In this document: piece by piece, positions 1,427 to 58,450 of the stretch | Layout of the letters: each line of letters starts with the position of its first letter | Numbering within the stretch: position 1 is the stretch's first letter | Assembly (NCBI GenBank): GCA_016735395.1 | Contig: JAERRO010000017.1 | Span: forward strand, 1-58,450 | Length of the DNA: 58,450 bases | Direction: 5' to 3' | Origin: Alphaproteobacteria bacterium | Lineage (GTDB): Bacteria > Pseudomonadota > Alphaproteobacteria > Rs-D84 > JAERRO01 | Translations under genes and position numbers: made by a program | Notes under the pieces: model-generated | Told to the model about the DNA's origin: nothing | The model's database searches: none | The model's input: only the letters and a program-made list of their open reading frames with translations

Positions 1427-1427
1427 A

Positions 1428-44305: not shown

Positions 44306-44527
44306 TTATAAGTCAAGTTTTTTTATCATTTTTCCACCTTCCTTATGAGAATCTATCATCCTCTTTATCATCAAGACCAGAGTCCGTTGTCCTTCTAGCA
44401 TCCGTAGTTCTGAATCTGTAGCAGAGTGAGGGACGGATCTATATAGTGTTATATTCTCTAGATACTTTAAAAATTCTTTACCGTTGCGATTATTGAAGCA
44501 TAGGAAGCATTCTTTAGCTATATTCAT
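44306..44527 (-). CDS. Small phage-associated protein (Bbp19-like?)
   Basis: 73 aa, ATGA-coupled to the portal gene. FNNRNGKEFLKYLENITL...SELRMLEGQRTLVLMIKRMI resembles the small Bbp19-type phage family (from memory only). Confidence 0.35.
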   Translation of the reverse strand: MNIAKECFLCFNNRNGKEFLKYLENITLYRSVPHSATDSELRMLEGQRTLVLMIKRMIDSHKEGGKMIKKLDL

Positions 44528-45975
44528 ATGGCAGTCTCCTCTTTATCGATACTATCTTTAATTAGAGAGGCAGGTATATTCAAAGTTTTCGCGACCCATA
44601 TTAAGATTTCTTTATGTTCTAAAATATCATTACATCCCATACTATTAGCGACCTCTATAAAGCCGAACAGTTTGTTAGTCTTTTCATTTTGATGTAGTTG
44701 TGCTACAGGAGAGAGGTATGACATTTTAAACAGGCTATTGTCGTATAAGACAGGGTTAATAAGACCTCTACTAATTAAAATATCTATACTTCGAACTAGT
44801 AGAGGCTTCATAAGTTCCTCTTGAATTCTCCCGTATGTTGCCCCGAGCACCCTCATCAGAACGGCTTGTCGTTCTATAATTTCTGTGGCTGTCATACTAG
44901 AGGTATTTATCGAACTTAATTTATCGGTAAAAAGAGAAGATCTAATTCTTCTCCGAAGATCATTTAAAAGTTTATCTGAGACATTAAAATCACTAGGCAC
45001 TCGTAACGGGGTTAACCCTTGAGATCCTATTGCTTTAGGTATAACAACTCCGGGAGCTAATTTAAGGTTAGATATATTCATTACTCCGTCGTCTTCGACT
45101 TGCCACATACCAGAAACGGCTATAGAAGCATTTTTCAAAACCAACTCCATAACTTTATTGAGTGTCTTGATATCCGGCAGTGCTTTCATCACTGGAGAGT
45201 ACCCGTAAATTCCGTCTATCAGTTGATTCCATCTAAAGATAAGCAGAGGGTTAGTCTTGAAAGATCCACATTCTAGTGTGTTATGATTCGTTATGTCCTC
45301 ACCTAAAATAGACTTATCGAGGAAAACTTTTTTACTAGAAAAACCTACTGTTTGTTTTTCTATAATGTGCAGAATTTTAACTTTATAGGTAGAATTTTCT
45401 TCTAATACCTGTATAAGTCTAGGGTTATCTATTCGACTTCTAAACTTATTTAGAAACTCTCTAGCTAACATAGAAATTTTAAAAAACATAACATTGTTAT
45501 CTTCGCTAATAACTAGAGAAGCTATAGACACCGCTTTAAATTCGAAGATAGAATCACTTTCAAGCGGAGCATTCTTCATTAGCATACAGGCCGTCCCAGA
45601 AACGACTAGATCGTTATAACATTGATGAATTTCTGTTGAAAAGTTAGACATATCTAGATTAGAATTTATCAGATTATCGGCATCTTTTACTTGTTCCTTT
45701 ACTAGATTAAACTCTTCGGGATACAATTTATTCTCTAGATCTGTAGATGTCGACAAACTGAACCAAGGTGTGGAAGCTGGTGTTACGACGGAAAAGATAG
45801 AAGCTACTAATTGTTCTACGGCATCTAGTCCCGTTGAGTCGAAAATTTCTTTTTGATCTTTGACCTCTATGGGAAGTGTATACTTAAAACATTCACTCCA
45901 ATTTTTTTCTAGTTCTTGTCTTTTATCTTTTAGTTTATGATACTCTGTGATGAGTTGTTTTATATTAGATTTCAT
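44524..45975 (-). CDS. Phage portal (head-to-tail connector, T7 gp8-like)
   Basis: 483 aa. DGIYGYSPVMKALPDIKTLNKVMEL and TATEIIERQAVLMRVLGATYGRIQEELMKPLLVRSIDILISRGLI parallel T7 gp8 (ESYGRSYIEEYLGDLRSLENL; TAEEIRYVASELEDTLGGVYSILSQELQLPLV). Confidence 0.65.
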   Translation of the reverse strand: MKSNIKQLITEYHKLKDKRQELEKNWSECFKYTLPIEVKDQKEIFDSTGLDAVEQLVASIFSVVTPASTPWFSLSTSTDLENKLYPEEFNLVKEQVKDADNLINSNLDMSNFSTEIHQCYNDLVVSGTACMLMKNAPLESDSIFEFKAVSIASLVISEDNNVMFFKISMLAREFLNKFRSRIDNPRLIQVLEENSTYKVKILHIIEKQTVGFSSKKVFLDKSILGEDITNHNTLECGSFKTNPLLIFRWNQLIDGIYGYSPVMKALPDIKTLNKVMELVLKNASIAVSGMWQVEDDGVMNISNLKLAPGVVIPKAIGSQGLTPLRVPSDFNVSDKLLNDLRRRIRSSLFTDKLSSINTSSMTATEIIERQAVLMRVLGATYGRIQEELMKPLLVRSIDILISRGLINPVLYDNSLFKMSYLSPVAQLHQNEKTNKLFGFIEVANSMGCNDILEHKEILIWVAKTLNIPASLIKDSIDKEETAI

Positions 45976-46087
45976 TATTAAACTCCTTTAATTGAAAACT
46001 ACCCGATAGCTACGGGCGAGCATTATGAGACCTATAAAATAGGCATTTTATTAAATTAGAAAGACTATAATTATATACAGAATAATT

Positions 46088-46516
46088 TTATAGTTTAGGC
46101 AAGTTAGGCAAATAATTGTCTACTTGATCAGCTTTTATTAAAAAGCTTTGACATTTTATCTCGTCGACGGACATACCTGTAGCAAATTTTACTATAGGGT
46201 TCAGAGCTGTAAAAATCAGAAAGACAAAAAACAGATGTTTAATACTATCTATAATTTTCGGCGGATTTTGATCTCCCCGTATAGATATATTTTTTATAAT
46301 CAGTCCTACTGCCCAACCGAAAAATAGCAGACCGGCAATAATTTGAGACACTAGAAAAAGCATATCAAAAATATTAGTAAATACTTCAGGTGTACACATA
46401 GGATCTTTAAGCAAAAAATAGATACCGTCGCTATAGGACTTCATTGAAACTTCTAGACCTTGACCTCTCCAAATCTCTAGATATTCAGAAAAATTGTTAT
46501 CTCCATTTGATAACAT
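46088..46516 (-). CDS. Small membrane protein coupled to the FtsZ-like gene
   Basis: 142 aa. TM segments LFLVSQIIAGLLFFGWAVGLII and HLFFVFLIFTALNPIV. Its start lies 1 nt after the FtsZ-like stop (TAA-T-ATG). Confidence 0.45.
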   Translation of the reverse strand: MLSNGDNNFSEYLEIWRGQGLEVSMKSYSDGIYFLLKDPMCTPEVFTNIFDMLFLVSQIIAGLLFFGWAVGLIIKNISIRGDQNPPKIIDSIKHLFFVFLIFTALNPIVKFATGMSVDEIKCQSFLIKADQVDNYLPNLPKL

Positions 46517-46517
46517 A

Positions 46518-47744
46518 TTAGTTATCTTTAGGTAAATCGTCTAGCAGTGATCCATCTTTATCTTTAGGTTTCTTCTTTGAAAAAGGCAAACCTTGACTCA
46601 ACATATCGATAAATCCGATCCCATTTTTAGGTTTATCATCTAGACTTATTTTTTTCTTCAAAAAATCCGAATCAGACAGAGGATCATCTTCATCATTGAA
46701 TATTATATTTTTTCTTTCATCTTCGTCTACCATCTGTGTAGTGACGGTAGAAAAACCCACAACATTTTCTTCGACTATCGTCGTTCCGGACAAAACAGAC
46801 TCTAGACTTCCGTTGTCAAAATTTTCAAAAGAATTTATAAACTCGTCTTGAAAAGCTACTAGAGTGATCTTCATTCCGTCGTCTATTGTGGACTTTTCGT
46901 CATAAGAGATTGCGATATTTATATTATCTTGATATTGAACTATTTCGTGTAGAGACTTCATAAAAGATTCTATCCTAGTATATTTTACGACTTTTTTATT
47001 ACCGGAGAAATGCACATAAATTTTAGATGCATCTTGAGCTGATTGCACATTTAACAAAGGTTGTCGAAGTGATTTATTTACGACATCCTCGACAGTAGAG
47101 CTATAGTCATCTACATTGACGGAGGTCAAAATTTCGTTATGATTAGAAAGTGCCTCTAAAAAATCTACCCTAGACACATTTATAGATTTAGAATCGGCTA
47201 AAAATGTTAAAACTGACTTTATTATAATTACTTTTACACCTTGAACTATATTCATTATGGTATCGATAATTACATCCTCATCTTCACTAGATTTTGCACA
47301 TTGATCCCTAGAGATAACGGAAATGCTACCTGCTTTTTTATATATTATATCTAGTGTATCTTGAGACTGTTGTTTTAATTTTGAAGAGATAAATTGGAAC
47401 GGACGAGATGCGATTACTATAGAAAGTTTACCGTGTTTATTTATTAGGTCTAAAAGTTTCACTATTATTTTATATTCACCGACACTACCTAAATCCAGAC
47501 AAACAAAAACAACAGATAATGGCTCTAAAAACTCTACTAGTTTATTTGTCGATTCAGACTTATTATCGTCGACACCTTTCTCTATACAGTCCTCATCGTC
47601 AGTTACAGAGACATTTTCGTCTATTACGAAAAAGGTTGTATTTATTTCACTATCTGAACTAAATTGTTCTATATCTCTTTGAATAATATCAAGTTGAGTT
47701 TTCCCAACGGCGATTATTCCGATATTAGATTCACTATTTACCAT
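46518..47744 (-). CDS. Divergent FtsZ/tubulin-fold homolog lacking the GTP-binding signature
   Basis: 408 aa. VVFVCLDLGSVGEYKIIVKLLDLINKHGKLSIVIASRPFQFISSKLKQQS aligns by eye with FtsZ [57 protein letters not shown]...IYVHFSGNKK...INIAISYDEKSTIDDGMKITLVAF aligns with ISSPLLE...VLVNITAG...VVIGTSLDPDMNDELRVTVVAT. A TGATATAAT extended -10 and AAGGAG RBS lie upstream. Confidence 0.55.
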   Translation of the reverse strand: MVNSESNIGIIAVGKTQLDIIQRDIEQFSSDSEINTTFFVIDENVSVTDDEDCIEKGVDDNKSESTNKLVEFLEPLSVVFVCLDLGSVGEYKIIVKLLDLINKHGKLSIVIASRPFQFISSKLKQQSQDTLDIIYKKAGSISVISRDQCAKSSEDEDVIIDTIMNIVQGVKVIIIKSVLTFLADSKSINVSRVDFLEALSNHNEILTSVNVDDYSSTVEDVVNKSLRQPLLNVQSAQDASKIYVHFSGNKKVVKYTRIESFMKSLHEIVQYQDNINIAISYDEKSTIDDGMKITLVAFQDEFINSFENFDNGSLESVLSGTTIVEENVVGFSTVTTQMVDEDERKNIIFNDEDDPLSDSDFLKKKISLDDKPKNGIGFIDMLSQGLPFSKKKPKDKDGSLLDDLPKDN

Positions 47745-47873
47745 ATATGTTCTCCTTCTTATTATATCATAAAAAAGCGAATAAATCTAGTATGAAAGGA
47801 GAAAGATTTCGAAGTTAAAAAGTAGTTTGACTTTACGGTAAAGAACGGCTAAACTTCTATGTATAAAATACAA

Positions 47874-47949
47874 GGCTAGATAGCTCAGTTGGTAGAGCAA
47901 AAGACTGAAAATCTTTGTGTCGGGGGTTCGATTCCCTCTCTAGCCACCA
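47874..47949 (+). tRNA. tRNA-Phe (anticodon GAA), CCA encoded
   Basis: GGCTAGA-TA-GCTC..GAGC-A-AAAGA-CTGAAAA-TCTTT-GTGTC-GGGGG-TTCGATT-CCCTC-TCTAGCC-A-CCA. Confidence 0.92.
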
Positions 47950-48816
47950 TTATTTAATAATAATTTGCCCGTTAAAGACCATTCTCTCTGGCATTGTAGA
48001 AATACTAGCATTATGTATATATAGGTTCCCGTTTAAAATAGATTGATCAGAGAAGGAAACTTTTCTTACATTACTGACTATGATGTGTCCTTCTACCTTT
48101 AATTTTTTTGGCAGTCTAAAATTGGAAGAGATATCTTTAATAAATAAGTTTCCCTTAACGATAGTATTAGGTTTTATCGTGACAAGATTATTGCCTGTAA
48201 TTTTCAGGTCTCCGTTATGGACTATGACTTGTTCCTCAACTGGGATTCTTCTAGAGTTCACGACATAAGTAGAAGTACCTCCACCGTGCGGTATAGCGAT
48301 AGTAGATACATTTGTATACTTTTTAATTTTTCTGTTCTCTAATTCTAGAATTTCATCTACAAATTTCTGTTTTTCTCTATTTTTAGTTAAATTCGCAACA
48401 GGATAAATAAACTTGTTATTAATTTCTCTTCTATATACTGCCTCAGTTTTAGAGATTACTTTATCTACATCGATTGAGCTACTGTCTAAATCGATACTTT
48501 TTGTATCTATCACAGGAGATTTCTGTTCATAAATTTTAGCAAATTCTATACTTTTATAGAGGGAATCTATTTTCTTTTTTGCTAGTATATTAGAGTATTT
48601 GAATCCTATCATAAACCACAGATATAGCAGTACTGACATCAGGACGACTATAGCGAATACAAATCTGGCTGTCGCGGAAGTTCTATTTTTAATAAAATTC
48701 CAGGGTGCCGTTATGGTTTTTTTCGGAGACCATTTTTTAAAAGACAACTTTTTAAAAGACAACTTTTTAAACTGAATTTTAGATTTTCGTTTAGTTATTT
48801 TTTTATTATCGTTCAT
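47950..48816 (-). CDS. Membrane-anchored protein with C-terminal beta-helix-like repeats (bactofilin-like?)
   Basis: 288 aa. Basic N-terminus with KKLSF repeats (15-bp tandem repeat at 48734..48772). TM FVFAIVVLMSVLLYLWFMIGF. C-terminal periodic NGDLKITGNN / KGNLFIKD / EGHIIVSN / NGNLYIHN / NGQIIIK. Its stop abuts the tRNA-Phe 3' end. Confidence 0.35.
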   Translation of the reverse strand: MNDNKKITKRKSKIQFKKLSFKKLSFKKWSPKKTITAPWNFIKNRTSATARFVFAIVVLMSVLLYLWFMIGFKYSNILAKKKIDSLYKSIEFAKIYEQKSPVIDTKSIDLDSSSIDVDKVISKTEAVYRREINNKFIYPVANLTKNREKQKFVDEILELENRKIKKYTNVSTIAIPHGGGTSTYVVNSRRIPVEEQVIVHNGDLKITGNNLVTIKPNTIVKGNLFIKDISSNFRLPKKLKVEGHIIVSNVRKVSFSDQSILNGNLYIHNASISTMPERMVFNGQIIIK

Positions 48817-48948
48817 ATTTTGTTCCTATTTTATATATTATGTTGATAGTAATATACACCAATTATTCTATTTGTCAACACCCCTATAAAAAATAAAATC
48901 TTGTTTTAACCTTAAAAAAATGTATACTTAATTTAAAAGGTGATATAA

Positions 48949-49437
48949 ATGTTTAATAAAAAATTTAATATTTTAGAATCAGGCAGATCTATGATTGAGA
49001 TGCTAGGAGTTTTAGCTATTAGCAGTATGATAATCTCTGGGGCCTTATTGACTTATAAACAGATAAAAAGCAAGCAGACTAGAATTTTAGTTTTGGACGA
49101 AATTCACACGATATCTGATCGAGTTAATATCTTATATGCTGGGAGATCTTTTGAAGGTTTATCAACCGATTACTTGATTAAAGCTGGTGTCGTCAGAACT
49201 GATAAAAATCAAATGCACGGTAAATTAGTGGTCGGTTCTAGTCAGTTAGGAGAAAGTTTCTATATAGAATATAACAATCTCGACTATAGCGATTGCATAT
49301 ACTTTTACAAACAGTATATAGAGAGATTAAAAAGCAAGGAGATAAATACCGTTGAACTATTGAAGTTCGACAAGGACCGTAATGTAGATAATATCTGCAA
49401 TAGCGGAGATGAAAACAGAATACGATTTTACTTTTAG
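48949..49437 (+). CDS. Prepilin-type (type IV pilin/pseudopilin-like) protein
   Basis: 162 aa. N-terminal SGRSMIEMLGVLAISSMIISGALL fits the G/(F,M)xxxE prepilin cleavage-methylation motif plus hydrophobic helix. TTGTTT-N16-TGTATACT promoter upstream. It overlaps the convergent TerL-C gene by 4 nt. Confidence 0.55.
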   Translation: MFNKKFNILESGRSMIEMLGVLAISSMIISGALLTYKQIKSKQTRILVLDEIHTISDRVNILYAGRSFEGLSTDYLIKAGVVRTDKNQMHGKLVVGSSQLGESFYIEYNNLDYSDCIYFYKQYIERLKSKEINTVELLKFDKDRNVDNICNSGDENRIRFYF

Positions 49438-50231
49438 TTAGAGAAAAGAACTCGTCCTTCGAACCTAGGTAAAACTCGTAGAGAGTGTTTCAGGGCCATA
49501 GTCAAAGCATCTAGACCGTCATCTTTTTGATCTTTTTTAGCTAAAGAGAAATCTACAAATTCTTGAATAAACGGAGTTCGCAAAACTCTAGAATGGAATA
49601 AAATAGATTTAGAGGTAATCAGAGGTTCTAGAGTTTCAAAGATTCTCATAACTTTAGATGTTTTAGAAAAATACGGTTCTATGTATAATTTGAATTTCAT
49701 ATCTTTGGCAACTTGTTTCATCAGGGTAGGTATTAAGGCTCCTATACCGTTAACTTCGACGAATATGTGATTAAGTTTCAGTTGTTTAATTTTGAGGATA
49801 ACGGTTCTAATTTGATTCCGAAAGTCTTCTTGAGAATAGAAGCTCGAAAAATCTAAATAGAACATCTCGTGTACAAAATAATGTTGTGTTTCATCATTAA
49901 CAAAAACGAAAGCTACGACACTGGCATCACTATTACTTTTGCCTAGAGAGGGATCCCAAAAGCACCCTCCCCTGTGAAGTTTTTCTTCATTTAATAAATA
50001 TAAAATCTCATTATTATGATGATGAACTATGATGTCGTCGTCATAGTGGACTATCTGTTCTTCTTTAAAAACGGTAGAATTTGTGTCATAAAATTCGAGC
50101 ATCATTTGAGACATAAAAGCAAATTCACCTACCTTCAGTCTTAACCTCTGTATGACTTCTTCAGGAAATTGTTCTGGCCAAATAGACTTACCTCTATTGA
50201 TGATAGGCATATGAAAAAAATCATCTGTCAT
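49434..50231 (-). CDS. Terminase large subunit, C-terminal nuclease half (separate ORF)
   Basis: 265 aa. RNase H-like nuclease motifs GCFWDPSLGKSNSDASVVAFVF, IFVEVNGIG and KDDGLDALTMAL. Confidence 0.65.
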   Translation of the reverse strand: MTDDFFHMPIINRGKSIWPEQFPEEVIQRLRLKVGEFAFMSQMMLEFYDTNSTVFKEEQIVHYDDDIIVHHHNNEILYLLNEEKLHRGGCFWDPSLGKSNSDASVVAFVFVNDETQHYFVHEMFYLDFSSFYSQEDFRNQIRTVILKIKQLKLNHIFVEVNGIGALIPTLMKQVAKDMKFKLYIEPYFSKTSKVMRIFETLEPLITSKSILFHSRVLRTPFIQEFVDFSLAKKDQKDDGLDALTMALKHSLRVLPRFEGRVLFSN

Positions 50232-50335
50232 GGTGTATCTTTAAAAAATAGGGGATTATATAAAAATATAAAGAGGTCTCCAGAGTTGAGGAGAGAGAAT
50301 ATAAAATAGATTCAACACCTAGAAACCTCAAAATA

Positions 50336-50364
50336 GTTATAAGACACAATATATAATTTGTCAA
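50336..50364 (-). promoter_or_regulatory. Promoter-like element inside the gap between the two TerL halves
   Basis: Minus strand: TTGACA (50359..50364), 17-nt spacer, TATAAC (50336..50341). Confidence 0.4.
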
Positions 50365-50405
50365 GTACTATTTTAATTATTTTGTCAACAAAGAAAACAG
50401 GTCGA

Positions 50406-51026
50406 CTATTTTTGTTCGGTATTATAAATAGAGTTTAAACAGTGCGGAGTCCCTATAAAAAGTAGCAGTCCTTGTCCTCCCAGAATAAATTCTAATTCGA
50501 CAAGTCTATCCATAAGTTTTTCTCTTTTGGACGGGTTAGATACAGTATTAGGGACTTCGACATCGTCGCACAGAACTATATCTGCTCTTATTCCGGTGAC
50601 ATTAGCAAATATCCCAGTAGCTACGACAGAAGGATCTTTCAATACACCTATCCGTTTAACAGAGAACTTATCGCCTCCCCACTCTTTTTTAGTCCCTTTC
50701 TCCGGCACTAGATATTCACACAGCGGATGATTAGTTATAATATTTTGAATATGTCTCAACAACCTTTTAGCGAGTCTAGATTCGGCAGATAGGATAAGTA
50801 TTCTAGTCTGCGGATTTCTAAATAATAGCCAGGCTCCGAGCATTCCGACGAGTGTAGATTTACCAGAATATCGAAAAGCGAGTAGTACTGCTCTAGACCG
50901 TTTAGCTAAAATTATCCACTGTAGATATGCCCCCATCTTTTGCATATGCAGAGGTATACTTTTATCATAACATTGAATAAAGAAATTGAAACTTGAGAAT
51001 GCTACAACGGTATTTCTATCGTTCAT
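50406..51026 (-). CDS. Terminase large subunit, N-terminal ATPase half (separate ORF)
   Basis: 206 aa. Walker A FRYSGKSTLVG, Walker B ADIVLCDDVE, coupling motif FIGTPH. Ends with TAG at the domain linker. Confidence 0.65.
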   Translation of the reverse strand: MNDRNTVVAFSSFNFFIQCYDKSIPLHMQKMGAYLQWIILAKRSRAVLLAFRYSGKSTLVGMLGAWLLFRNPQTRILILSAESRLAKRLLRHIQNIITNHPLCEYLVPEKGTKKEWGGDKFSVKRIGVLKDPSVVATGIFANVTGIRADIVLCDDVEVPNTVSNPSKREKLMDRLVELEFILGGQGLLLFIGTPHCLNSIYNTEQK

Positions 51027-51035
51027 GAGGCATAG

Positions 51036-51686
51036 TTATATGTCGGTGAGGCTTCCGTAGTCCGTAGTCTCTATCGCTTCCTCGTCGATATTACCCAGAT
51101 CATCGATTATATTTGGCAGAGCTTCCTTAACGATTTTCACGAGGTTATTAAAAAGTCCTATTACCATATGAACAGATTGACTACTTGTTAAATCGTCTAC
51201 ATCTTGTTGAATTTTCCGTATAGTCGTCTTAAAATCGCAGACGACTTTTTCAAAATCGTCGGTACTCCTTCTAGAAGGCTGGTTATTTTTAATCTCTAGA
51301 ACGGCATCTTCCCCGCTTTCAATAGGGTCTATGGTGTCTTCAAAATTATTTATTCTAAAGGTTCTATCGAGAACTTCCTTAATGTCATTAATAGCCATAA
51401 ACAGAAAGTCGAGATCTTTATTTAGATCGTCTGCAGAAATATTTTTATATTGTTGAAATGAAGTTTTTCTTTCTATTTCCAGAACTCTATCGACAGTAAT
51501 AATATCTCCCTTTTCCGGAGTCTTATTAAAAGACACTTCTCCACCTTCGGCAAAAATTTCTACTAAATAGTTTCCTTGACTAATTAGCAGATCATTGATA
51601 AATACTCTCACATCATTTGCAGAGTATACAGAAAATGGAAAAGAAAATATTTTCTGTCCATCGGTAATATATTTTATAAAAGCCAT
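51036..51686 (-). CDS. T7-type tail-fibre N-terminal (tail-attachment) domain protein, lacks distal fibre
   Basis: 216 aa. YITDGQKIFSFPFSVYSANDVRVFINDLLISQGNYLVEI...VSFNKTPEKGDIITVDRVLEIERKTSFQQ...LNKDLDFLFMAINDIKE parallels the T7 gp17 N-terminus (YQLDGSNRDFNIPFEYLARKFVVVTL...IELRRVTSTTDRLVDF...YDLNVAQIQTMHVAEE). Confidence 0.5.
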   Translation of the reverse strand: MAFIKYITDGQKIFSFPFSVYSANDVRVFINDLLISQGNYLVEIFAEGGEVSFNKTPEKGDIITVDRVLEIERKTSFQQYKNISADDLNKDLDFLFMAINDIKEVLDRTFRINNFEDTIDPIESGEDAVLEIKNNQPSRRSTDDFEKVVCDFKTTIRKIQQDVDDLTSSQSVHMVIGLFNNLVKIVKEALPNIIDDLGNIDEEAIETTDYGSLTDI

Positions 51687-51712
51687 AGCTTATCCTTTTT
51701 TGATTAAATTAT

Positions 51713-52174
51713 TTATTTTAAAATAGAAGTGATCGCTGACCTCCCTTTGTCGAACAAACTTCGTTTTTGAGGAGTCTTAAAGACCGATTTTTTTTGTCTA
51801 TAACGAATATCTTGTTTAGTATTTTCGTATTTGTTATCATCGTCTAGCACAGAAATTTTATCATCAGATTCATTTTTCCGTCTAGTCTGTAGAGCTTTAG
51901 CAGAAGAAGAAAACAGAGAAACTCCTCTAGCCCCTAAAGAGGCATTATCTTTTGCAATATTTTGTTTTATATTTTGATTTTCCTTTTTGACAGCGGTCTT
52001 ATGTTTTTTATTTCTATATTTAGTTTCTGCTTGTTTTAATTGTCGGTCAAAAACCATATGATCTACTTCCTCTTTCTTGCCTAGAAGAGGATCTAGAAAT
52101 TTCAGATCAGTTTTATTGACTATTTTACTTGTTACATTTTTAAAACTATTAAATGTTTTTTTTAAGAATCCCAT
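51713..52174 (-). CDS. Basic, low-complexity virion-cluster protein (unknown)
   Basis: 153 aa, Lys/Arg-rich, no motif recognised. Confidence 0.4.
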   Translation of the reverse strand: MGFLKKTFNSFKNVTSKIVNKTDLKFLDPLLGKKEEVDHMVFDRQLKQAETKYRNKKHKTAVKKENQNIKQNIAKDNASLGARGVSLFSSSAKALQTRRKNESDDKISVLDDDNKYENTKQDIRYRQKKSVFKTPQKRSLFDKGRSAITSILK

Positions 52175-52184
52175 AAAAGTCCTT

Positions 52185-54095
52185 TTAGTTAAATTGGAGA
52201 TTTGAGTGAAAGGAAATTCCTATCAGATGGAAGTTAACGGGGTCGTCTCCCTGTATTTTCCAAAGCGGTATTTCCATATTATGAGTCCATCCTATAGAAT
52301 TAATTTCTATAGTTCGGACAGCATTATTTTGAGTGATTGATTTATCTGTGTTGATTATATTGTTATCGACATAGACATTTTTATATCCATTACCTAGATC
52401 TATTGATATCCGGTTGGTATCTTTTACGACGGCATTAAACTTTATTATTCTACAATATTTCAGTCCCTTAAAAGGGCCATACCGATATGGCATTGGAGCT
52501 ACGGTATGTGTGTACGGTGTACCGACTATCCAGTTTAATTTTCGTGTATCTGTAGTATCGATAATTTTATTTACTTTATCGACTCTCAGAACGGTATTAT
52601 CTTGATATGCGATGACATCTTTTCCTATAAGATGTTTAGGAGTGATCAAAAAGTTATTATCATTTTTACATACGACGGAGTGATCGACAGATATATCTGC
52701 GGAAAACTTTTCGAAGAAAAATCTACCATCGACTTCACAGATTACATATACGGTTTGATTAACGACACACACAGACTTAAATTTGCCTACACATGTATGG
52801 AGAGACCATGCATATTTTCTAGAGTCTTTGAGGTAAGTTACTATTGCCAGCGATCCATCTTGCATTACGATATATATTTTTTGATCGAGATCATTATAGT
52901 CTAGATCTACTGGAGAGTTCATTAGGTGATTAGCTACCTTAGCGATATCTCTGGTGACATATTTCAGTCCTGTATCGTCTAGCATCATTTCTCTGATCTC
53001 TTTTCCATTTCTTCCTACGAAGAAAGTCGCACCTTCCATGTGTCTAGGTGGGATAAAAGAATTATTATATGTCCCGACATTAGTCTGTTTTATGATCTTA
53101 ACAGTATCCATCTTTATAGGACTACCGAATATTACCCATTCACCGATGGAGGTCAAGATCTCTAAATTCAGAGATGAAACCATACTATTTATTCTTAAAG
53201 GTGTTGACGACATAAGAGTTAAATCCATAGCATCGTCGTCGAGTCCTTCACCGAACTCGAAGTTAAATAACTCGAAAGTTTTAGACATAAAAATTCTGTA
53301 CGGCATATCTCTAGTCCCACCGATGACGAGTCTCCCTTGATGAACGATAGTATGGATAGGAAACCCTCTAGCGATTGAGCAAACTTTTTCTCTCCAGTTT
53401 GATGTCTTATCTATAACTTTATTTTCACCGGAGATAAAATTTACTTTCATCTGTTTAGGAGAGATATATTCGACGGTCTCTACTTCATAGATATCTTTAA
53501 CATCGTCGCCGACATTGAAGATAAAAACACCGTGTAGATTTTGTAATTCAAAAATAGATCTATCTGAGTTAATAAAATAAATTATTTTTCCTTCGTCATC
53601 GACATCGCTAGAAATAGAAAACTGGACATTCTCCCAGCCTCTAAATTTTATAACTGGAGAAAAGTCTTTCTTGACTATATTCCAAGATTCATCTTTAGAG
53701 TAAGAGATAAGATGAGGAGATATATCTTCATGTGTAAACAAAACAAATTTATCTATAAATGTCCAAGAGATATCCATAATTTGTTCGGGCGAATAGAAAG
53801 ACTTAAAAGTAGTAATAATTTTATCGTCGTTAAAAACATAGATAATTTTTTCGGTTAAAACTATTACTCCTGACCGTTTATCACTAAAAGGGAGTGCGAT
53901 AATTCTACCTACGGATCCTATCTCATGTAGGAGCATAGTGCCGTCTCTCCTTTTGATACCGCCAGAGTGATGTACTATCATATTTCGCAAGAGAAAAAGA
54001 GCATCGCTTTGGTTAGGTTCTTCGACAGAATTGATGAGTGTCTCTGCGACTTCACCTTGAGAAAAATTAAATTGTGTGTATAGTGAGTTAGTCAT
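52185..54095 (-). CDS. Tail tubular (nozzle) protein B, T7 gp12-like
   Basis: 636 aa. RIFMSKTFELFNFEFGEGLDDDAMDLTL...LEILTSIGEWVI...FFVGRNGKEIREM parallels T7 gp12 (IILSRTAKYFNFYPASIANLSDDDPIDVAV...LLIWSDEAQFVL...YFASPRSSFTSIHRY). Positioned right after the gp11-like gene. Confidence 0.5.
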   Translation of the reverse strand: MTNSLYTQFNFSQGEVAETLINSVEEPNQSDALFLLRNMIVHHSGGIKRRDGTMLLHEIGSVGRIIALPFSDKRSGVIVLTEKIIYVFNDDKIITTFKSFYSPEQIMDISWTFIDKFVLFTHEDISPHLISYSKDESWNIVKKDFSPVIKFRGWENVQFSISSDVDDEGKIIYFINSDRSIFELQNLHGVFIFNVGDDVKDIYEVETVEYISPKQMKVNFISGENKVIDKTSNWREKVCSIARGFPIHTIVHQGRLVIGGTRDMPYRIFMSKTFELFNFEFGEGLDDDAMDLTLMSSTPLRINSMVSSLNLEILTSIGEWVIFGSPIKMDTVKIIKQTNVGTYNNSFIPPRHMEGATFFVGRNGKEIREMMLDDTGLKYVTRDIAKVANHLMNSPVDLDYNDLDQKIYIVMQDGSLAIVTYLKDSRKYAWSLHTCVGKFKSVCVVNQTVYVICEVDGRFFFEKFSADISVDHSVVCKNDNNFLITPKHLIGKDVIAYQDNTVLRVDKVNKIIDTTDTRKLNWIVGTPYTHTVAPMPYRYGPFKGLKYCRIIKFNAVVKDTNRISIDLGNGYKNVYVDNNIINTDKSITQNNAVRTIEINSIGWTHNMEIPLWKIQGDDPVNFHLIGISFHSNLQFN

Positions 54096-54106
54096 AAGTT
54101 TCCCTA

Positions 54107-54676
54107 TTAGTTTTTATTTCTAGAGTGGAGAAGAGTATTGTCTTGAACAACAGTTAAACCATCTTGTTGAGAGTCTATTTGTCTACCGTGAGCAAAGCTT
54201 ATATCGAAAGCCTTCGAATGCAAATAGTGCAAACTAGAATCTTGAGTAAGAGGAATAGCGAAAGTCATAGCGAGTCTATCGATTAGTACTTGAGTAAAAT
54301 AGATAGGAAAATCTATTTCATCTACTGCAGTAATATACATAATATAAACTGTATTTGATGTCGTAAAAATCTTTCTACCGTTAATTTTATAGTCGATTAG
54401 TAAAGGAGAACTTTCTACTGAAGAAACTTGAATTAGTCTAATACAGTCCTTCGGCAGTTCAAAATAGTAATTACTATTGTCAGTTTTATCTAACATTTTT
54501 ACCAGTTGTAGAGACCGTTTAGTAAATCTCCAGGGGTAAATGGAGAAGACGAAATCACGAGTATTGTTGTATAAATTAGAGGCTATCTGTGATGCTACCG
54601 TAGAGTCATCAAAACTCTGAATAGGTTGACTCCCAAGCCTAATTAAAGCTTGAGAGCAGATATCGATATCGTTCAT
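54107..54676 (-). CDS. Tail tubular (adaptor) protein A, T7 gp11-like
   Basis: 189 aa (T7 gp11 is ~196 aa). ICSQALIRLGSQPIQSFDDST...NNTRDFVFSIYPWRF...FPIYFTQVLIDRLAMTFA parallels T7 gp11 (VNDILASIGEPPVSTLEGD...QIQSRGWTF...MPECFRYWIVTKASRQF). Confidence 0.55.
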   Translation of the reverse strand: MNDIDICSQALIRLGSQPIQSFDDSTVASQIASNLYNNTRDFVFSIYPWRFTKRSLQLVKMLDKTDNSNYYFELPKDCIRLIQVSSVESSPLLIDYKINGRKIFTTSNTVYIMYITAVDEIDFPIYFTQVLIDRLAMTFAIPLTQDSSLHYLHSKAFDISFAHGRQIDSQQDGLTVVQDNTLLHSRNKN

Positions 54677-54679
54677 CTT

Positions 54680-54925
54680 CTATACAAGAGAAGCTAGAAC
54701 GACTCCTTGATCGGAGACAGATTCTACGACTCTAAAAGCGAGTTGCGGAGTTCCCGCGGTATCTGTTGCTATTATGATTAGATCGTGTGGGTTAATCATA
54801 TTAGAAACTTCTCCGAAGTATTTTGGGTCGAAAATATCGACGATTGAGTCGACCGATTTATAGTGCCATAATGTAAATCCATTAGCATAAGATATCACGG
54901 CCAAGTTTTTTGAAATGAAAGACAT
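54680..54925 (-). CDS. Small virion-cluster protein (unknown)
   Basis: 81 aa, located between the capsid and adaptor genes. Confidence 0.4.
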   Translation of the reverse strand: MSFISKNLAVISYANGFTLWHYKSVDSIVDIFDPKYFGEVSNMINPHDLIIIATDTAGTPQLAFRVVESVSDQGVVLASLV

Positions 54926-54954
54926 AAAAAATCCTTTTTTGTTATTAAGTTAAG

Positions 54955-55779
54955 TTAAGATAGGTCGTTGCAACAAAGTTTTACGATACCTGTATCATCG
55001 ATTAAAGCGGATCCTTGACTCATAGAATTACTCACGAAGAATGAAGCTCTCTCACCATGCCAAGAAATATCTGTTTTGATATCTTGAGCTACGGCGTGTC
55101 CGATAGCACTTTTATGGTAGATAAAACAAGATCGTTCATCAGAGTCAGAGATCGGCAGTTCGTTATGTAAGATCCATACGATACCCATCCATTTTCTATT
55201 TTCACTTCCGTTTAAAAGAGGGTGAGCATCGCCGACATAGTCGGACTTCACAAATTCATCCATTTGGAGAAGTTCGTTCCATTGATGAACTCCGACAACG
55301 GCAAATCTTTGTCCGTCGTCAGGGACATTCTTAGAGTTAAGTTGTTCGACGGCTTTTAAGATGATTTCTTTCGTCAGACCTGTAGAAAAGTCCCCAGAAT
55401 TTTGGGTCGTTTCATTTAGTTTATTGATAATGAGTTCGTCAGTTTTTTGCCCTAGAGCATAAGCTCCGGCACTAGCGACTACTCTTCGTTCATCTATATT
55501 AGTTTTAAGTTCGTCTAAAGCGTCGACCCAGTCTCCTGCATAATAGTCTTGAAGAAGACATTCTACAGGTTCATAAGATAGGTTCATTACAGGAACCATA
55601 CCATGGCGAGATTTAGTATTAGCGACACCTTTACCTACTTTTTGAAATACAGTGTTAGATCCGACAATATTATTTTTCGTTCTAACGGTATTACGAAGTT
55701 TTGTTCCCATTTGTTGGTAGCAACTGTGAACTTCTGCTTCAAAGTGTTTGATAAAAGCTGATTCAATGTTTACAGACAT
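54955..55779 (-). CDS. Major capsid protein (T7 gp10-like family)
   Basis: 274 aa. FIKHFEAEVHSCYQQMGTKLRNTVRTKNNIVGSNTVFQKVGKGVANTK...DWVDALDELKTNIDERRVVASAGAYALGQKTDELII parallels T7 gp10 (FLKVFGGEVLTAFARTSV...RSISSGKSAQFPVLGRTQA...IYDIEDAMNHYDVRSEYTSQLGESLAMAADGAVL). Confidence 0.6.
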   Translation of the reverse strand: MSVNIESAFIKHFEAEVHSCYQQMGTKLRNTVRTKNNIVGSNTVFQKVGKGVANTKSRHGMVPVMNLSYEPVECLLQDYYAGDWVDALDELKTNIDERRVVASAGAYALGQKTDELIINKLNETTQNSGDFSTGLTKEIILKAVEQLNSKNVPDDGQRFAVVGVHQWNELLQMDEFVKSDYVGDAHPLLNGSENRKWMGIVWILHNELPISDSDERSCFIYHKSAIGHAVAQDIKTDISWHGERASFFVSNSMSQGSALIDDTGIVKLCCNDLS

Positions 55780-55818
55780 TAAAAATCCTTTTGATTATAT
55801 ATAAAATATTTAAATTTC

Positions 55819-55835
55819 GTAGAATTTATTTCTAC
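55819..55835. promoter_or_regulatory. Inverted repeat GTAGAA-N5-TTCTAC in the capsid-gene leader
   Basis: Read directly. It lies downstream of the minus-strand TTCAAA (55886..55891)-N17-TATATA (55863..55868) promoter-like element and shares half-sites with the 9398..9411 palindrome. Confidence 0.35.
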
Positions 55836-55893
55836 ATTTATATTCGTATGACTTGACACTTATATATATTTTTTGTGCAAGTTATTTTGAATA

Positions 55894-55970
55894 TAAAAAA
55901 AGCTCATATACAGGTGATATATGAGCTTTTTTTATAGCCATAAAAAAGTCCCTCTTTTTATAGAGGGACT
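55894..55970 (-). terminator. Two tandem rho-independent terminators
   Basis: AGCTCATATA (55901..55910) / TATATGAGCT (55918..55927), flanked by A7 and T7. AGTCCCTCT (55947..55955) / AGAGGGACT (55962..55970), with a T-run on the minus strand. Confidence 0.75.
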
Positions 55971-55996
55971 TCTAATTTTTTAATGATAGATTCAGA

Positions 55997-56659
55997 TTAT
56001 TCTCTATAGAAGACACTCATTATCTGTTGATAAATAGATCTAATAGCGGATATTATAAAGAAAGATACGAAAAATGTCACGATACCCACGAAGAAACCGT
56101 ACTGCATGGCATCTACAGATGAGAGACAAAAGCTTTGCCCTTGACAGATAACGAGATATACTCTACCGAAAATATTCGTTGCATCTAGATAAGAGAATAT
56201 TCCTATAAAAGTACTAAAAAAGAAAGATATCTTAATATTAGAGACTAAAATTTTAGGAAATTTTCTTTTAGCTAATTTTTTATTATGTAGTTTCATAAAG
56301 AAGAATAAAGCAATGAACATAAACAACATACTAAACATCAGAATAGTAAAAGTCTTGACTCCGACGGCCATAGAGGCATAGAGTATTTGTCCTGTATCTT
56401 TAGGGTAAAAGTAGGAGAGTTCTCTATATTGAGTTATAAAGAAATTCAAAGACAGAACAAAAGAATAGATGAAAGATATCCAGCACCATATCTTCATAAT
56501 CAGTTGAACTCCTATGGTATTGACAACATTATTTATCTCTTTACCGATAATATTTACAGAGTTTCCTACATGTTTAGTTCTAACGATAGTAGGGTGAGTT
56601 TTACGAGCGATCGGTTTTACACTAGACTTTTTAATCTTGGCTTTGGGTGTATTAGTCAT
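55997..56659 (-). CDS. Polytopic membrane protein inserted between the scaffold and capsid genes
   Basis: 220 aa. Basic N-terminus, then ~5 hydrophobic segments. Followed by the double terminator. Confidence 0.45.
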   Translation of the reverse strand: MTNTPKAKIKKSSVKPIARKTHPTIVRTKHVGNSVNIIGKEINNVVNTIGVQLIMKIWCWISFIYSFVLSLNFFITQYRELSYFYPKDTGQILYASMAVGVKTFTILMFSMLFMFIALFFFMKLHNKKLAKRKFPKILVSNIKISFFFSTFIGIFSYLDATNIFGRVYLVICQGQSFCLSSVDAMQYGFFVGIVTFFVSFFIISAIRSIYQQIMSVFYRE

Positions 56660-56737
56660 ATTATATTCTCCTTTTATCTCTATCCTATACTATAAATTTT
56701 AAAGGTAAAGGTCAAGTAAAATTTAGATCTATATCGA

Positions 56738-57319
56738 TTATTTTTTACCGTATAAGATTGCGAACCCTTTGTCTACTTTTCTGACGACCTCTGGGTTATG
56801 TTCTCTCCAGTATTGTGGATCCTGCATTATTTTTTTGAGGGACTTTTCCGTAGGTACTGCAGACTTTTTATCTGGGTTATCGTTAAAGTCTGGTTCTTGT
56901 GCATTCATTAGATAGTACATAGACATTATACCTCTTGCCGAAGATGCTAGCAGTTTAAACTCGTCTGGTTCTAGAAAAGCGTTTCCCCATTGTTCTAGTT
57001 TATCTGCGACTTTATTCCAGGCATCTTGAGATCCAAAGAAGTCGACAATTTTGTCTACCTCGGAGGAGGAGAAGTCATCTTGAGACATTTTTTCTAGTTC
57101 TGGCAAAACGAGTTCTTCTATAATGTTGTATACTTCTTGAGCCTGTTTATTATCTAGTCCCGCCTGAATCAGTCGTTTATTTATATCAGAGTTATCCTCT
57201 AATATGTCGGACTTTATATTATATTCTGTATTAGATTTTATATTACCGTCCACATTTTTATTATCGACGGCATTGTTATCTAGAGCTACATTATTTTTAT
57301 TTATATTATTGTCTATCAT
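56738..57319 (-). CDS. Capsid assembly (scaffolding) protein-like
   Basis: 193 aa, acidic and helical. The C-terminal DPQYWREHNPEVVRKVDKGFAILYGKK resembles the conserved tail of T7-group scaffolding proteins (from memory). Confidence 0.45.
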   Translation of the reverse strand: MIDNNINKNNVALDNNAVDNKNVDGNIKSNTEYNIKSDILEDNSDINKRLIQAGLDNKQAQEVYNIIEELVLPELEKMSQDDFSSSEVDKIVDFFGSQDAWNKVADKLEQWGNAFLEPDEFKLLASSARGIMSMYYLMNAQEPDFNDNPDKKSAVPTEKSLKKIMQDPQYWREHNPEVVRKVDKGFAILYGKK

Positions 57320-57552
57320 TATTTAGTTCCTTTAGCGGTTGTTTTATTAGGGTTAAAAACGGAAAAAGTAGAAGATATCTTCTTTTTGAAGAAAATCACT
57401 CCACATAGCGAAGCTACAGTAGAGATCATCAGATCCAGATTCATATCGCCGATAGCCCAGGCAGTTATAGCAGAAATGATACCTACGATAGCAGATAGCA
57501 GAATTTTTTTATCTTTGAGGAATCCCCCGTTAGATATGGTTGAAAGTTTCAT
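57319..57552 (-). CDS. Small two-TM protein (holin candidate)
   Basis: 77 aa. Two hydrophobic segments (ILLSAIVGIISAITAWAI; MISTVASLCGVIFF) and a basic C-terminus. It overlaps both the hydrolase gene and the scaffold gene. Confidence 0.4.
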   Translation of the reverse strand: MKLSTISNGGFLKDKKILLSAIVGIISAITAWAIGDMNLDLMISTVASLCGVIFFKKKISSTFSVFNPNKTTAKGTK

Positions 57553-57989
57553 AAAAGCTCCTTGATTTTAAAATTATGATCAAACTTGTAGAAGACAAGA
57601 GGATTGATCTCGATTATAGGTAACCAGTCAAGAGTCCACTCCGGGGATTCTGACAGGTGGTGAAAAGCGGTACTACCAAGAGTTCTATCGTGGAGTAAAC
57701 CCGAGCAGGCTCTTCTAGCAGTTCTCAAGCAAACTTGAAATTCTGGATCGTAGATAGGCACTTGCATCGGTTGAATTTTTTTAGAGTTCCAGGAATTAAA
57801 CAATTTGGTATCTCGCAAAATTTCATTCAGAGGGATATTATCATCGTTAGCCCTATTGACGATCATAGTTGCAAGAGCCTCTTTTACTCCTAGTTGCAGT
57901 GTAATCGTTTCGGTCATGATTACTCTAGCCATGAGATAAATCATAGTTTCGAGATTTTCATTACAAAGATGGTCGCAAAGTTGCGTCAT
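57549..57989 (-). CDS. Cell-wall hydrolase (SleB/Hydrolase_2-like endolysin candidate)
   Basis: 146 aa. IYLMARVIMTETITLQLGVKEALATMIVNRAND...LFNSWN follows the SleB-type pattern (A..i..Ea..e...G..AVa.Vi.NR......qF..w). AAGGAG RBS upstream. Confidence 0.5.
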   Translation of the reverse strand: MTQLCDHLCNENLETMIYLMARVIMTETITLQLGVKEALATMIVNRANDDNIPLNEILRDTKLFNSWNSKKIQPMQVPIYDPEFQVCLRTARRACSGLLHDRTLGSTAFHHLSESPEWTLDWLPIIEINPLVFYKFDHNFKIKELL

Positions 57990-58129: not shown

Positions 58130-58450
58130 TTATTTTTCAGTGGTACACTTTTCACGAACTGTGTCTATCATATCGTTGTATTGTCGAATAATTTTTCTAT
58201 CAAGGGACGGATACTTATTTTCATGCAAAGCATATATCTTCAGATGTTTAATCTTACTTTTATACGAGTAGCAGTCCATTCCGTTACTAGGAGTCTTGAC
58301 AGGAATCATCCTATAGAACAATGATGGCCATATCAAGAATATTATAGGAATTATGACTATGAATGGTATAAAAATCTTTAAAAGAACTTTTAATCTACTA
58401 TTGATATTTTTATTTTTCGTTAAAATTTTTTTATTTTTCGTTAATTTTTT
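58130..58450 (-). CDS. Membrane-anchored hypothetical protein, 5' end outside the window
   Basis: The ORF-track TTG start at 58336 sits in a frame that stays open to the window edge (hand translation ...KKLTKNKKILTKNKNINSRLKVLLKIFIPFIVIIPIIFL-IWPSLF...). It shows a basic repeat (14-bp DNA repeat at 58410..58444) plus one TM. Confidence 0.4.
   Translation of the reverse strand, partial: KKLTKNKKILTKNKNINSRLKVLLKIFIPFIVIIPIIFLIWPSLFYRMIPVKTPSNGMDCYSYKSKIKHLKIYALHENKYPSLDRKIIRQYNDMIDTVREKCTTEK

Follow-up and report, generated by a model that had tools for sequence, protein, structure and literature searches.

A putatively domesticated podovirus-type gene cluster with a split large terminase gene in the alphaproteobacterial order Rs-D84

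Among the gene transfer agents (GTAs) and GTA-like elements, those of the Alphaproteobacteria are represented by RcGTA and CcGTA (Rhodogtaviriformidae), which are of the HK97/siphovirus type, and by BaGTA of Bartonella, a domesticated phage cluster (PMC3610622). In addition, FpGTA of Faecalibacterium prausnitzii was called the first podovirus-like GTA-like element in a 2026 paper (PMC12946183), and among the phages themselves the Legionella phage LME-1 is a T=7 podovirus of about 60 nm with a T7-like tail (PMC12407071). This paper deals with a cluster of virion, packaging and lysis genes located at 44306-57989 on the minus strand of the window, that is, of the whole stretch of 58,450 nucleotides (nt) analysed, which is one whole contig (JAERRO010000017.1, our C18) of a 674-kb, 23-contig assembly (GCA_016735395.1) that is 93.5% complete. 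The organism belongs to the alphaproteobacterial order Rs-D84 (Candidatus Enterousia and its kin), whose members have genomes of about 1 Mb or below and a very limited metabolism (PMC12306168); families of this order are designated f1 to f5 here, and the window genome represents f1. We read the cluster, with moderate confidence, as a podovirus module of the LME-1/Carin-1/HTVC010P-pelagiphage type that was domesticated long ago and is represented here by its f1 copy, namely a GTA-like "viriform", and no description of this element was found in the literature searched.

Gene identities were assigned by profile searches (Pfam and PHROG), fold and structure matches (PDB) and the coordinates of open reading frames (ORFs). 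The profile searches uphold nearly all of the identities, and with them the gene list and the coordinates of an initial annotation that had been made from the letters of the sequence (Table 1). The T7-like tail set consists of homologues of the gp8 portal, the gp11 adaptor, the gp12 nozzle and the N-terminal domain of gp17, and since capsid, scaffold, portal and both halves of the large terminase (TerL) are present as well, the cluster does not belong to the tail-only devices called tailocins. All cluster proteins are single-copy in the genome, and the G + C content of the cluster, 0.33-0.37, is that of the genome. The tight coupling of the genes and the abrupt edge towards serS, which the initial annotation had pointed out, are borne out by the ORF coordinates: 4-nt overlaps join SleB with the holin candidate and the portal with the Bbp19-like gene, a 1-nt overlap joins holin candidate and scaffold, a 1-nt gap separates the ftsZ-like gene from that of the 142-amino-acid (aa) protein, and serS follows 71-72 bp from the cluster edge. 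It is likewise true, as had been stated, that no ORF of the cluster has the size of gp15 or gp16, the largest one being of 636 aa. As to the claim that promoters and terminators frame the cluster, terminator-like hairpins do lie at both ends (58050-58032 and 44283-44250); the promoter part of the claim was checkable only in part, the consensus scan being noisy in this AT-rich window (92 promoter-like sites against 58 expected).

On the chromosome the cluster is flanked by serS at one edge and, at the opposite edge, by an HI0933-like gene and bipA. The sequence past the window end was taken from a second assembly (locus L113), which is 99.94% identical and extends 7.3 kb further; upstream of the lysin gene it encodes a 120-aa ORF, an HI0933-like flavoprotein, BipA, a class IV aminotransferase, a Kazal-domain protein and Dus. 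The initial annotation had proposed to look beyond position 58450 for the phage modules missing from the window and for attachment (att) repeats matching the tRNA-Phe end. Housekeeping genes were found instead, with no integrase, repressor, replication or core-protein module in the 7.3 kb, and neither end of tRNA-Phe has a copy elsewhere in the genome, nor are there direct repeats at the cluster ends. Integration at tRNA-Phe was rejected on this ground, and also because the tRNA gene is internal to the cluster, not at its edge, is the only one for tRNA-Phe in the cell and occupies the same site in three families. Among the cluster ORFs there is no integrase, RNA polymerase, DNA polymerase or recognisable small terminase, and in the cluster and the larger window ORFs tested no Pfam or PHROG match to an RNA polymerase, a DNA polymerase/primase or the gp14-16 core proteins was obtained. 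The locus thus lacks the single-subunit RNA polymerase, the DNA polymerase/primase and the gp14-16 proteins that mark a prophage of the Autographiviridae type, and it differs from satellites of the capsid-forming phage-inducible chromosomal island (cf-PICI) type in having no integrase or replication genes and in possessing adaptor, nozzle and fibre genes of its own. The genome encodes only two tyrosine recombinases, each of about 300 aa and on other contigs, and no regulator of the cluster was identified in the window.

TerL is encoded by two ORFs (about 200 and 290 aa) in the window and in all those related Rs-D84 loci whose sequence extends to it, whereas in outgroup Alphaproteobacteria it is a single ORF of 487-616 aa in all seven loci containing it. 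In an alignment of five genomes, one from each of f1 to f5, the break falls at one and the same position. A two-ORF TerL that is order-wide, broken at one position and unsplit in the outgroups argues for a single split event in the Rs-D84 ancestor. Alignment with unsplit outgroup TerL places the end of the N half just past the ATPase C-motif (IGTPH...IY) and the start of the C half just ahead of the lid motif (W-P-E-x-F ... F-x-S-Q-M), with essentially no residues lost. The N half carries Walker A (FRYSGKST), Walker B (IVLCDDVE) and the C-motif (GTPH), and the C half keeps the WDPS, VEVNGIG and DDGLDA motifs; none of the ATPase motifs and none of the three acidic nuclease motifs has been lost. 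The two halves are adjacent in f1, f2 and f5, with spacers of 174-334 nt; tRNA-Phe, ftsZ and the portal gene lie between them in f3, and an antisense dnaB/double-helix-turn-helix operon in f4 (Enterousia). By parsimony the adjacent arrangement, as in the f1 genome, is the older state. Joining of the halves by an alternative genetic code or by read-through was rejected, because the spacer of the window, where the halves are in the same frame, holds nine stops of all three kinds and because the halves are in different frames in relatives. An intron or ribozyme was rejected too: the spacers are too short for group I or group II introns, cannot be aligned between families, and no Rfam match was obtained even at E <= 1.

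Four of the spacers (those of the window, G004, G009 and G001) are mutually unalignable, yet a strong promoter-like site is present in each. Those of the window, G004 and G001 have it followed by a hairpin with a CU-rich, anti-Shine-Dalgarno-like loop (CUCCUC/CCUCC), and in that of G009 a similar CU-rich stretch is unpaired in the predicted fold; the folding z-scores of the three spacers folded were -2.5, -2.8 and -1.2. The spacer might represent a small RNA or an element that controls translation of the C half. The CU-rich motif was dismissed as a genome-wide element, being too unspecific (86 polypyrimidine tracts).

The cluster is widely distributed in the order. A search of species-representative genomes with the capsid protein gave 454 confirmed loci, and the best 80 of the 454 are all from uncultured gut Alphaproteobacteria, many of them named Candidatus Enterousia. 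In a panel of 41 Rs-D84 genomes (6 families, 15 genera), the portal gene is present in 36 genomes, one copy each, from all 6 families and 13 of the 15 genera, and in the relatives it is accompanied by the genes for capsid, adaptor, nozzle, scaffold, lysin and both TerL halves. The portal identities in this panel are 36-44%. Set against housekeeping proteins, the portal (35-42%) is conserved to the same degree as SerS (31-45%), and the capsid (56-72%) to the same degree as BipA (60-64%). A tree of the concatenated capsid, portal, nozzle and adaptor proteins unites Rs-D84 in one clade with the outgroups outside (SH-like approximate likelihood ratio test, SH-aLRT, 99), gives a support of 100 to f4 and to a group of three f3 genomes, with the fourth, the long-branch genome G040, unresolved, and places the window genome as sister to f4; a host tree of BipA and SerS recovers the same families.

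Outside the order, single-copy capsid homologues of 45-64% identity occur in about 38 of 200 alphaproteobacterial families sampled, and the module is widespread in other Alphaproteobacteria in its form with unsplit TerL. The outgroup order is portal-Bbp19-scaffold-capsid-81aa-adaptor-nozzle-small protein-fibre-(small ORFs)-TerL-lysin. The portal gene precedes that of the scaffold there, as in T7; in Rs-D84, where gene order is family-specific, the portal is displaced, the portal-Bbp19 block and the lysis genes having moved. One such outgroup, G147, has a 12-kb cluster with pyrD on one side and four small ORFs, an S24 repressor, NUDIX and lysS on the other, and no integrase flanks it. The repressor, a CI/LexA-like Peptidase_S24 protein (25952-26581 of the joined stretch L119/L120), is divergently oriented 1.7 kb upstream of the portal gene and is a candidate for an SOS-linked regulator of the ancestral element.

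The ORFs are maintained by selection. In a set of 90 related Rs-D84 loci, comprising 80 species-level loci and 10 relatives, all 90 have intact ORFs of uniform lengths, with no frameshifts. Median pairwise ratios of nonsynonymous to synonymous substitution rates (dN/dS) among Enterousia-like species range from 0.08 to 0.36 over the cluster: they are lowest for the portal (0.08), the capsid (0.09) and the N half of TerL (0.12), lie between 0.15 and 0.27 for the other structural genes (C half of TerL and nozzle 0.21, adaptor and holin candidate 0.22, scaffold 0.24, Bbp19-like protein 0.27) and are highest for the lysin (0.36). The branch of the window genome is long in both trees, at three times the median in the cluster tree and five times the median in the housekeeping tree; its excess is thus no greater in the cluster than in the housekeeping proteins, which argues against a relaxation of selection specific to the cluster. 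Frameshifts in orthologous loci and dN/dS were what the initial annotation had named for telling neutral decay from a GTA-like or otherwise exapted particle, its preferred reading, and the intact orthologues, the dN/dS values and the lack of an outside module all favour the latter. Sequence comparison therefore gives good support to the view that the module was inherited vertically in the order and kept functional.

Long residence in the chromosome is also indicated by the genes that have come to lie within the cluster. The initial annotation had described a non-phage insertion with tRNA-Phe; non-phage it is, to be corrected in that these are host genes, namely those of a pilin, a beta-helix protein, tRNA-Phe and a degenerate FtsZ. 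That the ORFs of 408, 288 and 162 aa are phage ejection or cargo proteins was accordingly rejected, since they are an FtsZ homologue, a beta-helix membrane protein and a pilin, respectively. The 408-aa ORF has 56 HMMER matches in 1.84 billion representatives, and the top 10, which were checked, are all Tubulin+FtsZ_C proteins; at the same place f3 and f5 have a canonical ftsZ (in the order tRNA-Phe, ftsZ, a small ORF in f5, portal). Its GTP-binding signatures are lost (GVGGAGxN to IAVGKTQLD, GGGTGSG to DLGSVGE and NLDFADV to NVSRVDF), and no second FtsZ homologue was found in the 93.5%-complete assembly. tRNA-Phe is inside the cluster in f1, f3 and f5, and in f3 and f5 it lies between the N half of TerL and the portal gene as it does here. 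The pilin-like family is multi-copy in all 41 genomes and is next to the C half of TerL also in f2 and f5. The 288-aa protein has homologues inside the cluster in f3 and f5; its C-terminal 100 residues are modelled as beta-rich at 80-90 predicted local distance difference test (AlphaFold2), and its best plausible fold match is the bactofilin 6RIB (probability 0.89, not significant). Word-based homologue searches with the 408-aa and 288-aa proteins returned self-matches only. In Enterousia, moreover, dnaB is interleaved with the cluster, and essential host genes so interleaved (the only tRNA-Phe, ftsZ and, in Enterousia, dnaB) argue for a very long residence.

The fibre genes are divided between loci. 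The fibre protein of the cluster is shortened in Rs-D84, where it measures 178-240 aa; its outgroup homologues have 261-708 aa. The distal fibre locus mentioned in the initial annotation does encode a protein with an Mtd_N domain. This protein has a paralogue on contig C13 (G000:C13:15621-16745) and homologues in 23 of the 41 Rs-D84 genomes, and in several Enterousia short versions are encoded just downstream of Bbp19; a short-query BLAST for Mtd_N motifs near the clusters gave nothing within the loci fetched. It is plausible that the Mtd_N proteins are distal fibres encoded apart from the main cluster. Directly upstream of the Mtd_N gene and on the same strand (8054-9346, +) lies a gene for a PIF1/RecD-like helicase. 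With respect to uptake, ComEC is encoded in 20 of 21 Rs-D84 genomes, which is permissive for uptake only.

These data can be combined in the following model. The ancestral module, with the order portal-Bbp19-scaffold-capsid-...-TerL-lysin, would have been rearranged in the Rs-D84 ancestor, TerL being cut there once between the ATPase C-motif and the lid, and host genes (ftsZ, tRNA-Phe and pilin) would have come between TerL and the portal. In an induced cell, scaffold, capsid and portal would form procapsids, probably of T=7 and about 60 nm as in LME-1, into which a large terminase of two polypeptides, one with the ATPase core and one with lid and nuclease, would pump DNA by headful packaging. 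Because neither a small terminase or pac site nor a module for replication or integration can be recognised, the DNA packaged would be that of the host chromosome, with no preference for the element. Adaptor, nozzle, truncated fibre anchor and the separately encoded distal fibres of Mtd_N type would make up a short tail, and the particles would be released by holin and SleB-like lysin. As proteins of gp15/gp16 size are absent, delivery may end in the periplasm and rely on ComEC-type uptake by the recipient, as with RcGTA. With GTAs the cluster has in common chromosomal structural, packaging and lysis genes, the lack of replication, integration and excision genes, vertical inheritance and purifying selection. 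The domestication of the cluster is considered highly likely, and for GTA-like transfer of DNA the balance of the evidence leans only slightly in favour.

Several points weigh against this model. The system is known from its genes alone, from which we infer particle production, headful packaging, release by lysis and ComEC uptake; the activity of a two-piece TerL is likewise predicted from motifs, and delivery is uncertain, with no recognisable ejection proteins. A T=7 head (about 30-40 kb) would hold the 13.7-kb cluster, so the classical GTA property of too small a capacity may fail here; the closest phage genome is of 34 kb, but the main cluster does not include the fibre genes, which lie at a distance of 35 kb and on a different contig. 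At least two fairly complete genomes of the order (G011 and G028) are without the cluster, which is therefore dispensable and can be lost. The flanks are not conserved between families: in the window genome the cluster separates serS from bipA, two genes that adjoin each other in f4, so that at least one relocation, or a transfer, has to be assumed. Furthermore, the BipA and SerS tree puts f1 with f3 (SH-aLRT 95), although f1 with f4 is not significantly rejected (approximately unbiased test, p = 0.09), and the adjacency of serS and bipA, common to f1 and f4 only, agrees with the cluster tree. Finally, the dN/dS ratios come from Enterousia-like species and not from f1, which is without a close relative, and they are approximate, dS being near saturation (median about 1.2-1.3).

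The explanation that stands up best beside the GTA-like model is that of a domesticated particle that serves some purpose besides gene transfer, be it killing or host interaction, programmed lysis that feeds DNA or nutrients to kin, or delivery into a partner cell, on which these metabolically dependent bacteria presumably live. We regard it as unlikely but worth serious attention, as it is domestication and selection that the sequence comparison shows. A fibre reduced to an anchor and variable, multi-copy Mtd_N distal proteins would suit changing targets; members of Rs-D84 have been proposed to be obligate symbionts or parasites (PMC12306168), and for endosymbionts that have retained RcGTA-type heads it has been suggested that these took on a new role (PMC9254644). 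However, the TerL motifs are all kept under purifying selection, together with portal and scaffold, which implies particles filled with DNA, unneeded in a pure killing device such as a tailocin, and no gene for a toxin or an effector lies in the cluster.

A temperate podovirus, live or recently so, which infects Rs-D84 repeatedly, and whose early, replication and integration genes are elsewhere or act in trans, would account for a capsid type that is common to free phages (47% in EXVC031P, and LME-1), for the patchy occurrence of similar clusters over the families sampled, for a chromosomal position that varies between families and for the S24 repressor upstream of one outgroup cluster. It is nevertheless very improbable. 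The flanks have no integrase, replication or RNA polymerase genes either here or in G147, and att repeats are missing; the cluster proteins are single-copy here, and so is the portal in every Rs-D84 genome that carries it; the cluster tree follows the host families; essential host genes lie inside the cluster, whose composition is fully ameliorated; and the common TerL break point together with the family-specific gene orders cannot come from repeated infection. Least credible of all is an ordinary defective prophage in neutral decay that merely looks intact, in spite of the many missing phage functions, the interrupted TerL, the truncated fibre, the unrelated genes that break the cluster and its absence from a few genomes of the order, because in a random frame at 33% G + C stops are about 13 codons apart, and still reading frames as long as 636 aa stay open both here and, with uniform lengths, in 90 other species-level loci, with catalytic motifs intact, purifying selection throughout and conservation at the level of BipA and SerS.

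Table 1. Features of the cluster, in order of transcription, and the distal fibre candidate (window coordinates)
Feature	Position	Strand	Evidence and remarks
SleB-like cell-wall hydrolase (lysin)	57549-57989	-	PF07486 E 4e-4, below Pfam cut-off (weak); phrog_938 endolysin; first cluster gene
Holin candidate, 77 aa, two hydrophobic helices	57319-57552	-	sequence only; 4-nt overlap with SleB
Scaffolding protein	56738-57319	-	PF05396 Phage_T7_Capsid E 1.4e-7; kept in relatives and outgroups
Multi-transmembrane protein, 220 aa	55997-56659	-	sequence; no family match
Major capsid protein (HK97 fold, LME-1/pelagiphage type)	54955-55779	-	PF19821 E 2e-67; PDB 9EG4 (LME-1 major capsid) E 1.5e-21
81-aa protein	54680-54925	-	phrog_18004; directly 3' of capsid gene
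Adaptor (T7 gp11-like)	54107-54676	-	phrog_394 E 7e-35; PF17212 weak
Nozzle (T7 gp12-like)	52185-54095	-	phrog_376 E 1e-64; PDB 8CK1 "Tail Nozzle" E 8e-16; 9EFK E 7e-10
Basic protein, 153 aa	51713-52174	-	sequence; conserved small component 3' of nozzle
Fibre anchor, 216 aa (gp17-like N-terminal tail-binding part)	51036-51686	-	PHROG tail proteins, residues 3-111 only
TerL N half (ATPase)	50406-51026	-	phrog_38 positions 269-459, E 9e-39
Spacer between TerL halves, 174 nt	50232-50405	-	9 in-frame stops, promoter-like site, hairpin with CU-rich loop
TerL C half (lid and RNase H-like nuclease)	49434-50231	-	phrog_38 positions 483-706, E 9e-32; PF22530
Type IV (pseudo)pilin-like host gene, 162 aa	48949-49437	+	prepilin-type N-terminus G|RSMIEMLGVLAI; convergent with TerL C half
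Membrane-anchored protein, 288 aa, small C-terminal beta-helix	47950-48816	-	AlphaFold2 model; host-type gene
tRNA-Phe(GAA)	47874-47949	+	genome's only tRNA-Phe
Divergent FtsZ homologue, 408 aa, degenerate GTP-binding motifs	46518-47744	-	HMMER; host gene
Small membrane protein, 142 aa	46088-46516	-	no family match; between ftsZ-like gene and portal
Portal (T7 gp8-like)	44524-45975	-	PF12236 E 1e-87; PDB portals 8CK0, 9EFK, T7
Bbp19-like small protein	44306-44527	-	PF25181 E 2.6e-9; adjoins portal in Rs-D84 and outgroups
Distal fibre candidate, 443 aa, Mtd_N domain	9523-10854	+	PF18454 E 5.6e-10

Among the smaller components, a lysin ORF of 136-193 aa is kept in 72 of 80 Enterousia-like loci, and homologues of the holin candidate, 29-45% identical, occur in most Rs-D84 loci. 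The 81-aa protein is common to all of the related loci and to the outgroups, and the Pelagibacter phage EXVC031P likewise has an 81-aa gene for it; in the cluster this gene has the same position as the head-decoration gene of LME-1 in the gene order of that phage (PMC12407071), and from this position alone a decoration role may be supposed. The 153-aa basic protein, possibly an internal or ejection protein, has positional orthologues of 115-169 aa in all families and the outgroups, which are joined by a BLAST chain and have a common core NLLK..LA.QRA..GASG; the links of the window's own protein are weak (E about 0.01). At the position of the 142-aa protein, ORFs of 145-148 aa occur in the f5 genomes G004 and G009, with a membrane-spanning score for that of G004 only. 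The 220-aa multi-transmembrane protein (55997-56659) occupies a variable cargo slot between scaffold and capsid, which holds unrelated genes in f2, f3 and f4 (in f2 and f3 these encode unrelated membrane proteins, and in G035 a histone-like protein with AKKP repeats) and is empty in f5 and the outgroups; this protein is probably outside the ancestral module. Near-identical start motifs, AAAAGGAT(n5)ATG, are present at the translation starts of the genes for fibre anchor, 81-aa protein and capsid on the minus strand (51676-51702, 54915-54941 and 55774-55792), which suggests a common strong ribosome-binding site. Away from the cluster, the window holds type I restriction-modification genes (308-4523, +) for an S subunit and a 1031-aa HsdR. 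In L113, two small proteins beside the housekeeping genes (137-427 and 2660-2953) have Sushi (weak) and Kazal protease-inhibitor domains, which are of eukaryote type and are hints of interaction with an animal or protist host.

Should the particles be real, about 2% of a reduced gut-bacterial genome of less than 1 Mb is kept for a virus-derived machine, which implies a strong benefit, and this machine would offer a concrete mechanism by which members of a lineage of presumed obligate symbionts or parasites exchange genes or interact with a partner. The order-wide split of TerL between the ATPase core and the lid and nuclease is a natural test of the coupling of terminase activities. In addition, the series from an intact TerL in other orders, through the adjacent halves of f1, to halves separated by dnaB or by ftsZ and portal represents a stepwise absorption of a prophage into the chromosome. 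More tentatively, and with somewhat less than even confidence, we suggest that a second alphaproteobacterial GTA lineage has arisen from a podovirus of the LME-1/pelagiphage type, one that is unsplit in many free-living families (about 19% of those sampled) and has a two-polypeptide motor in Rs-D84, with f1 representing an early split state that predates the dnaB insertion.

Compared with known phages, the closest solved capsid (E 1.5e-21), portal and nozzle are those of LME-1 (PDB 9EG4, 9EFK) and of the Cobetia phage Carin-1 (8CK0, 8CK1), which share with the cluster the order portal ... capsid - small protein - adaptor - nozzle ... fibre and a T7-like tail architecture with no sequence similarity to T7 itself. 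These are complete replicating phages of about 30-40 kb, whereas the locus described here has about 11 kb of virion, packaging and lysis genes, rearranged, with TerL split and the fibre truncated, and fixed in the chromosome. The nearest isolated phage is Pelagibacter phage EXVC031P (OQ414635, HTVC010P-type), with identities of 47% for the capsid, 32% for the portal and 29% for the nozzle; its capsid has the identical length of 274 aa and is followed by the 81-aa gene and the adaptor, but its genome is circularly assembled with 34 kb, has an unsplit 501-aa TerL beside the portal and contains a full early region. FpGTA, compared by its description (PMC12946183), is similar in belonging to a gut bacterium, being podovirus-like, occupying more than one locus and having lysis genes; it differs in being from the Firmicutes and in that packaging of host DNA was shown by sequencing of particle DNA (PMC12946183), while the present system is seen at the level of genes. 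BaGTA is alphaproteobacterial, vertically inherited and a domesticated phage cluster as well, but it has a portal of 620 aa, a terminase of 447 aa and a run-off replication origin (PMC3610622), no such origin being seen here, and homology with it was rejected as the gene sizes do not fit. RcGTA and CcGTA resemble the cluster in a set of head, tail, packaging and lysis genes without replication or integration genes, in being chromosomal, vertically inherited, order-wide and under purifying selection, in having fibre genes at separate loci and in the availability of ComEC in potential recipients. Their proteins, however, are unrelated: the capsid is of PF05065 in a small oblate T=3 head, against T7-like tail proteins, an HK97-fold capsid of PF19821, a head of likely T=7 and a TerL predicted to consist of two polypeptides here. 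Co-presence of the two types was rejected, as an RcGTA-type capsid was found in none of 21 Rs-D84 genomes. If its particles are real, the cluster would be the first podovirus-derived GTA-like system in the Alphaproteobacteria, independent of both RcGTA and BaGTA.

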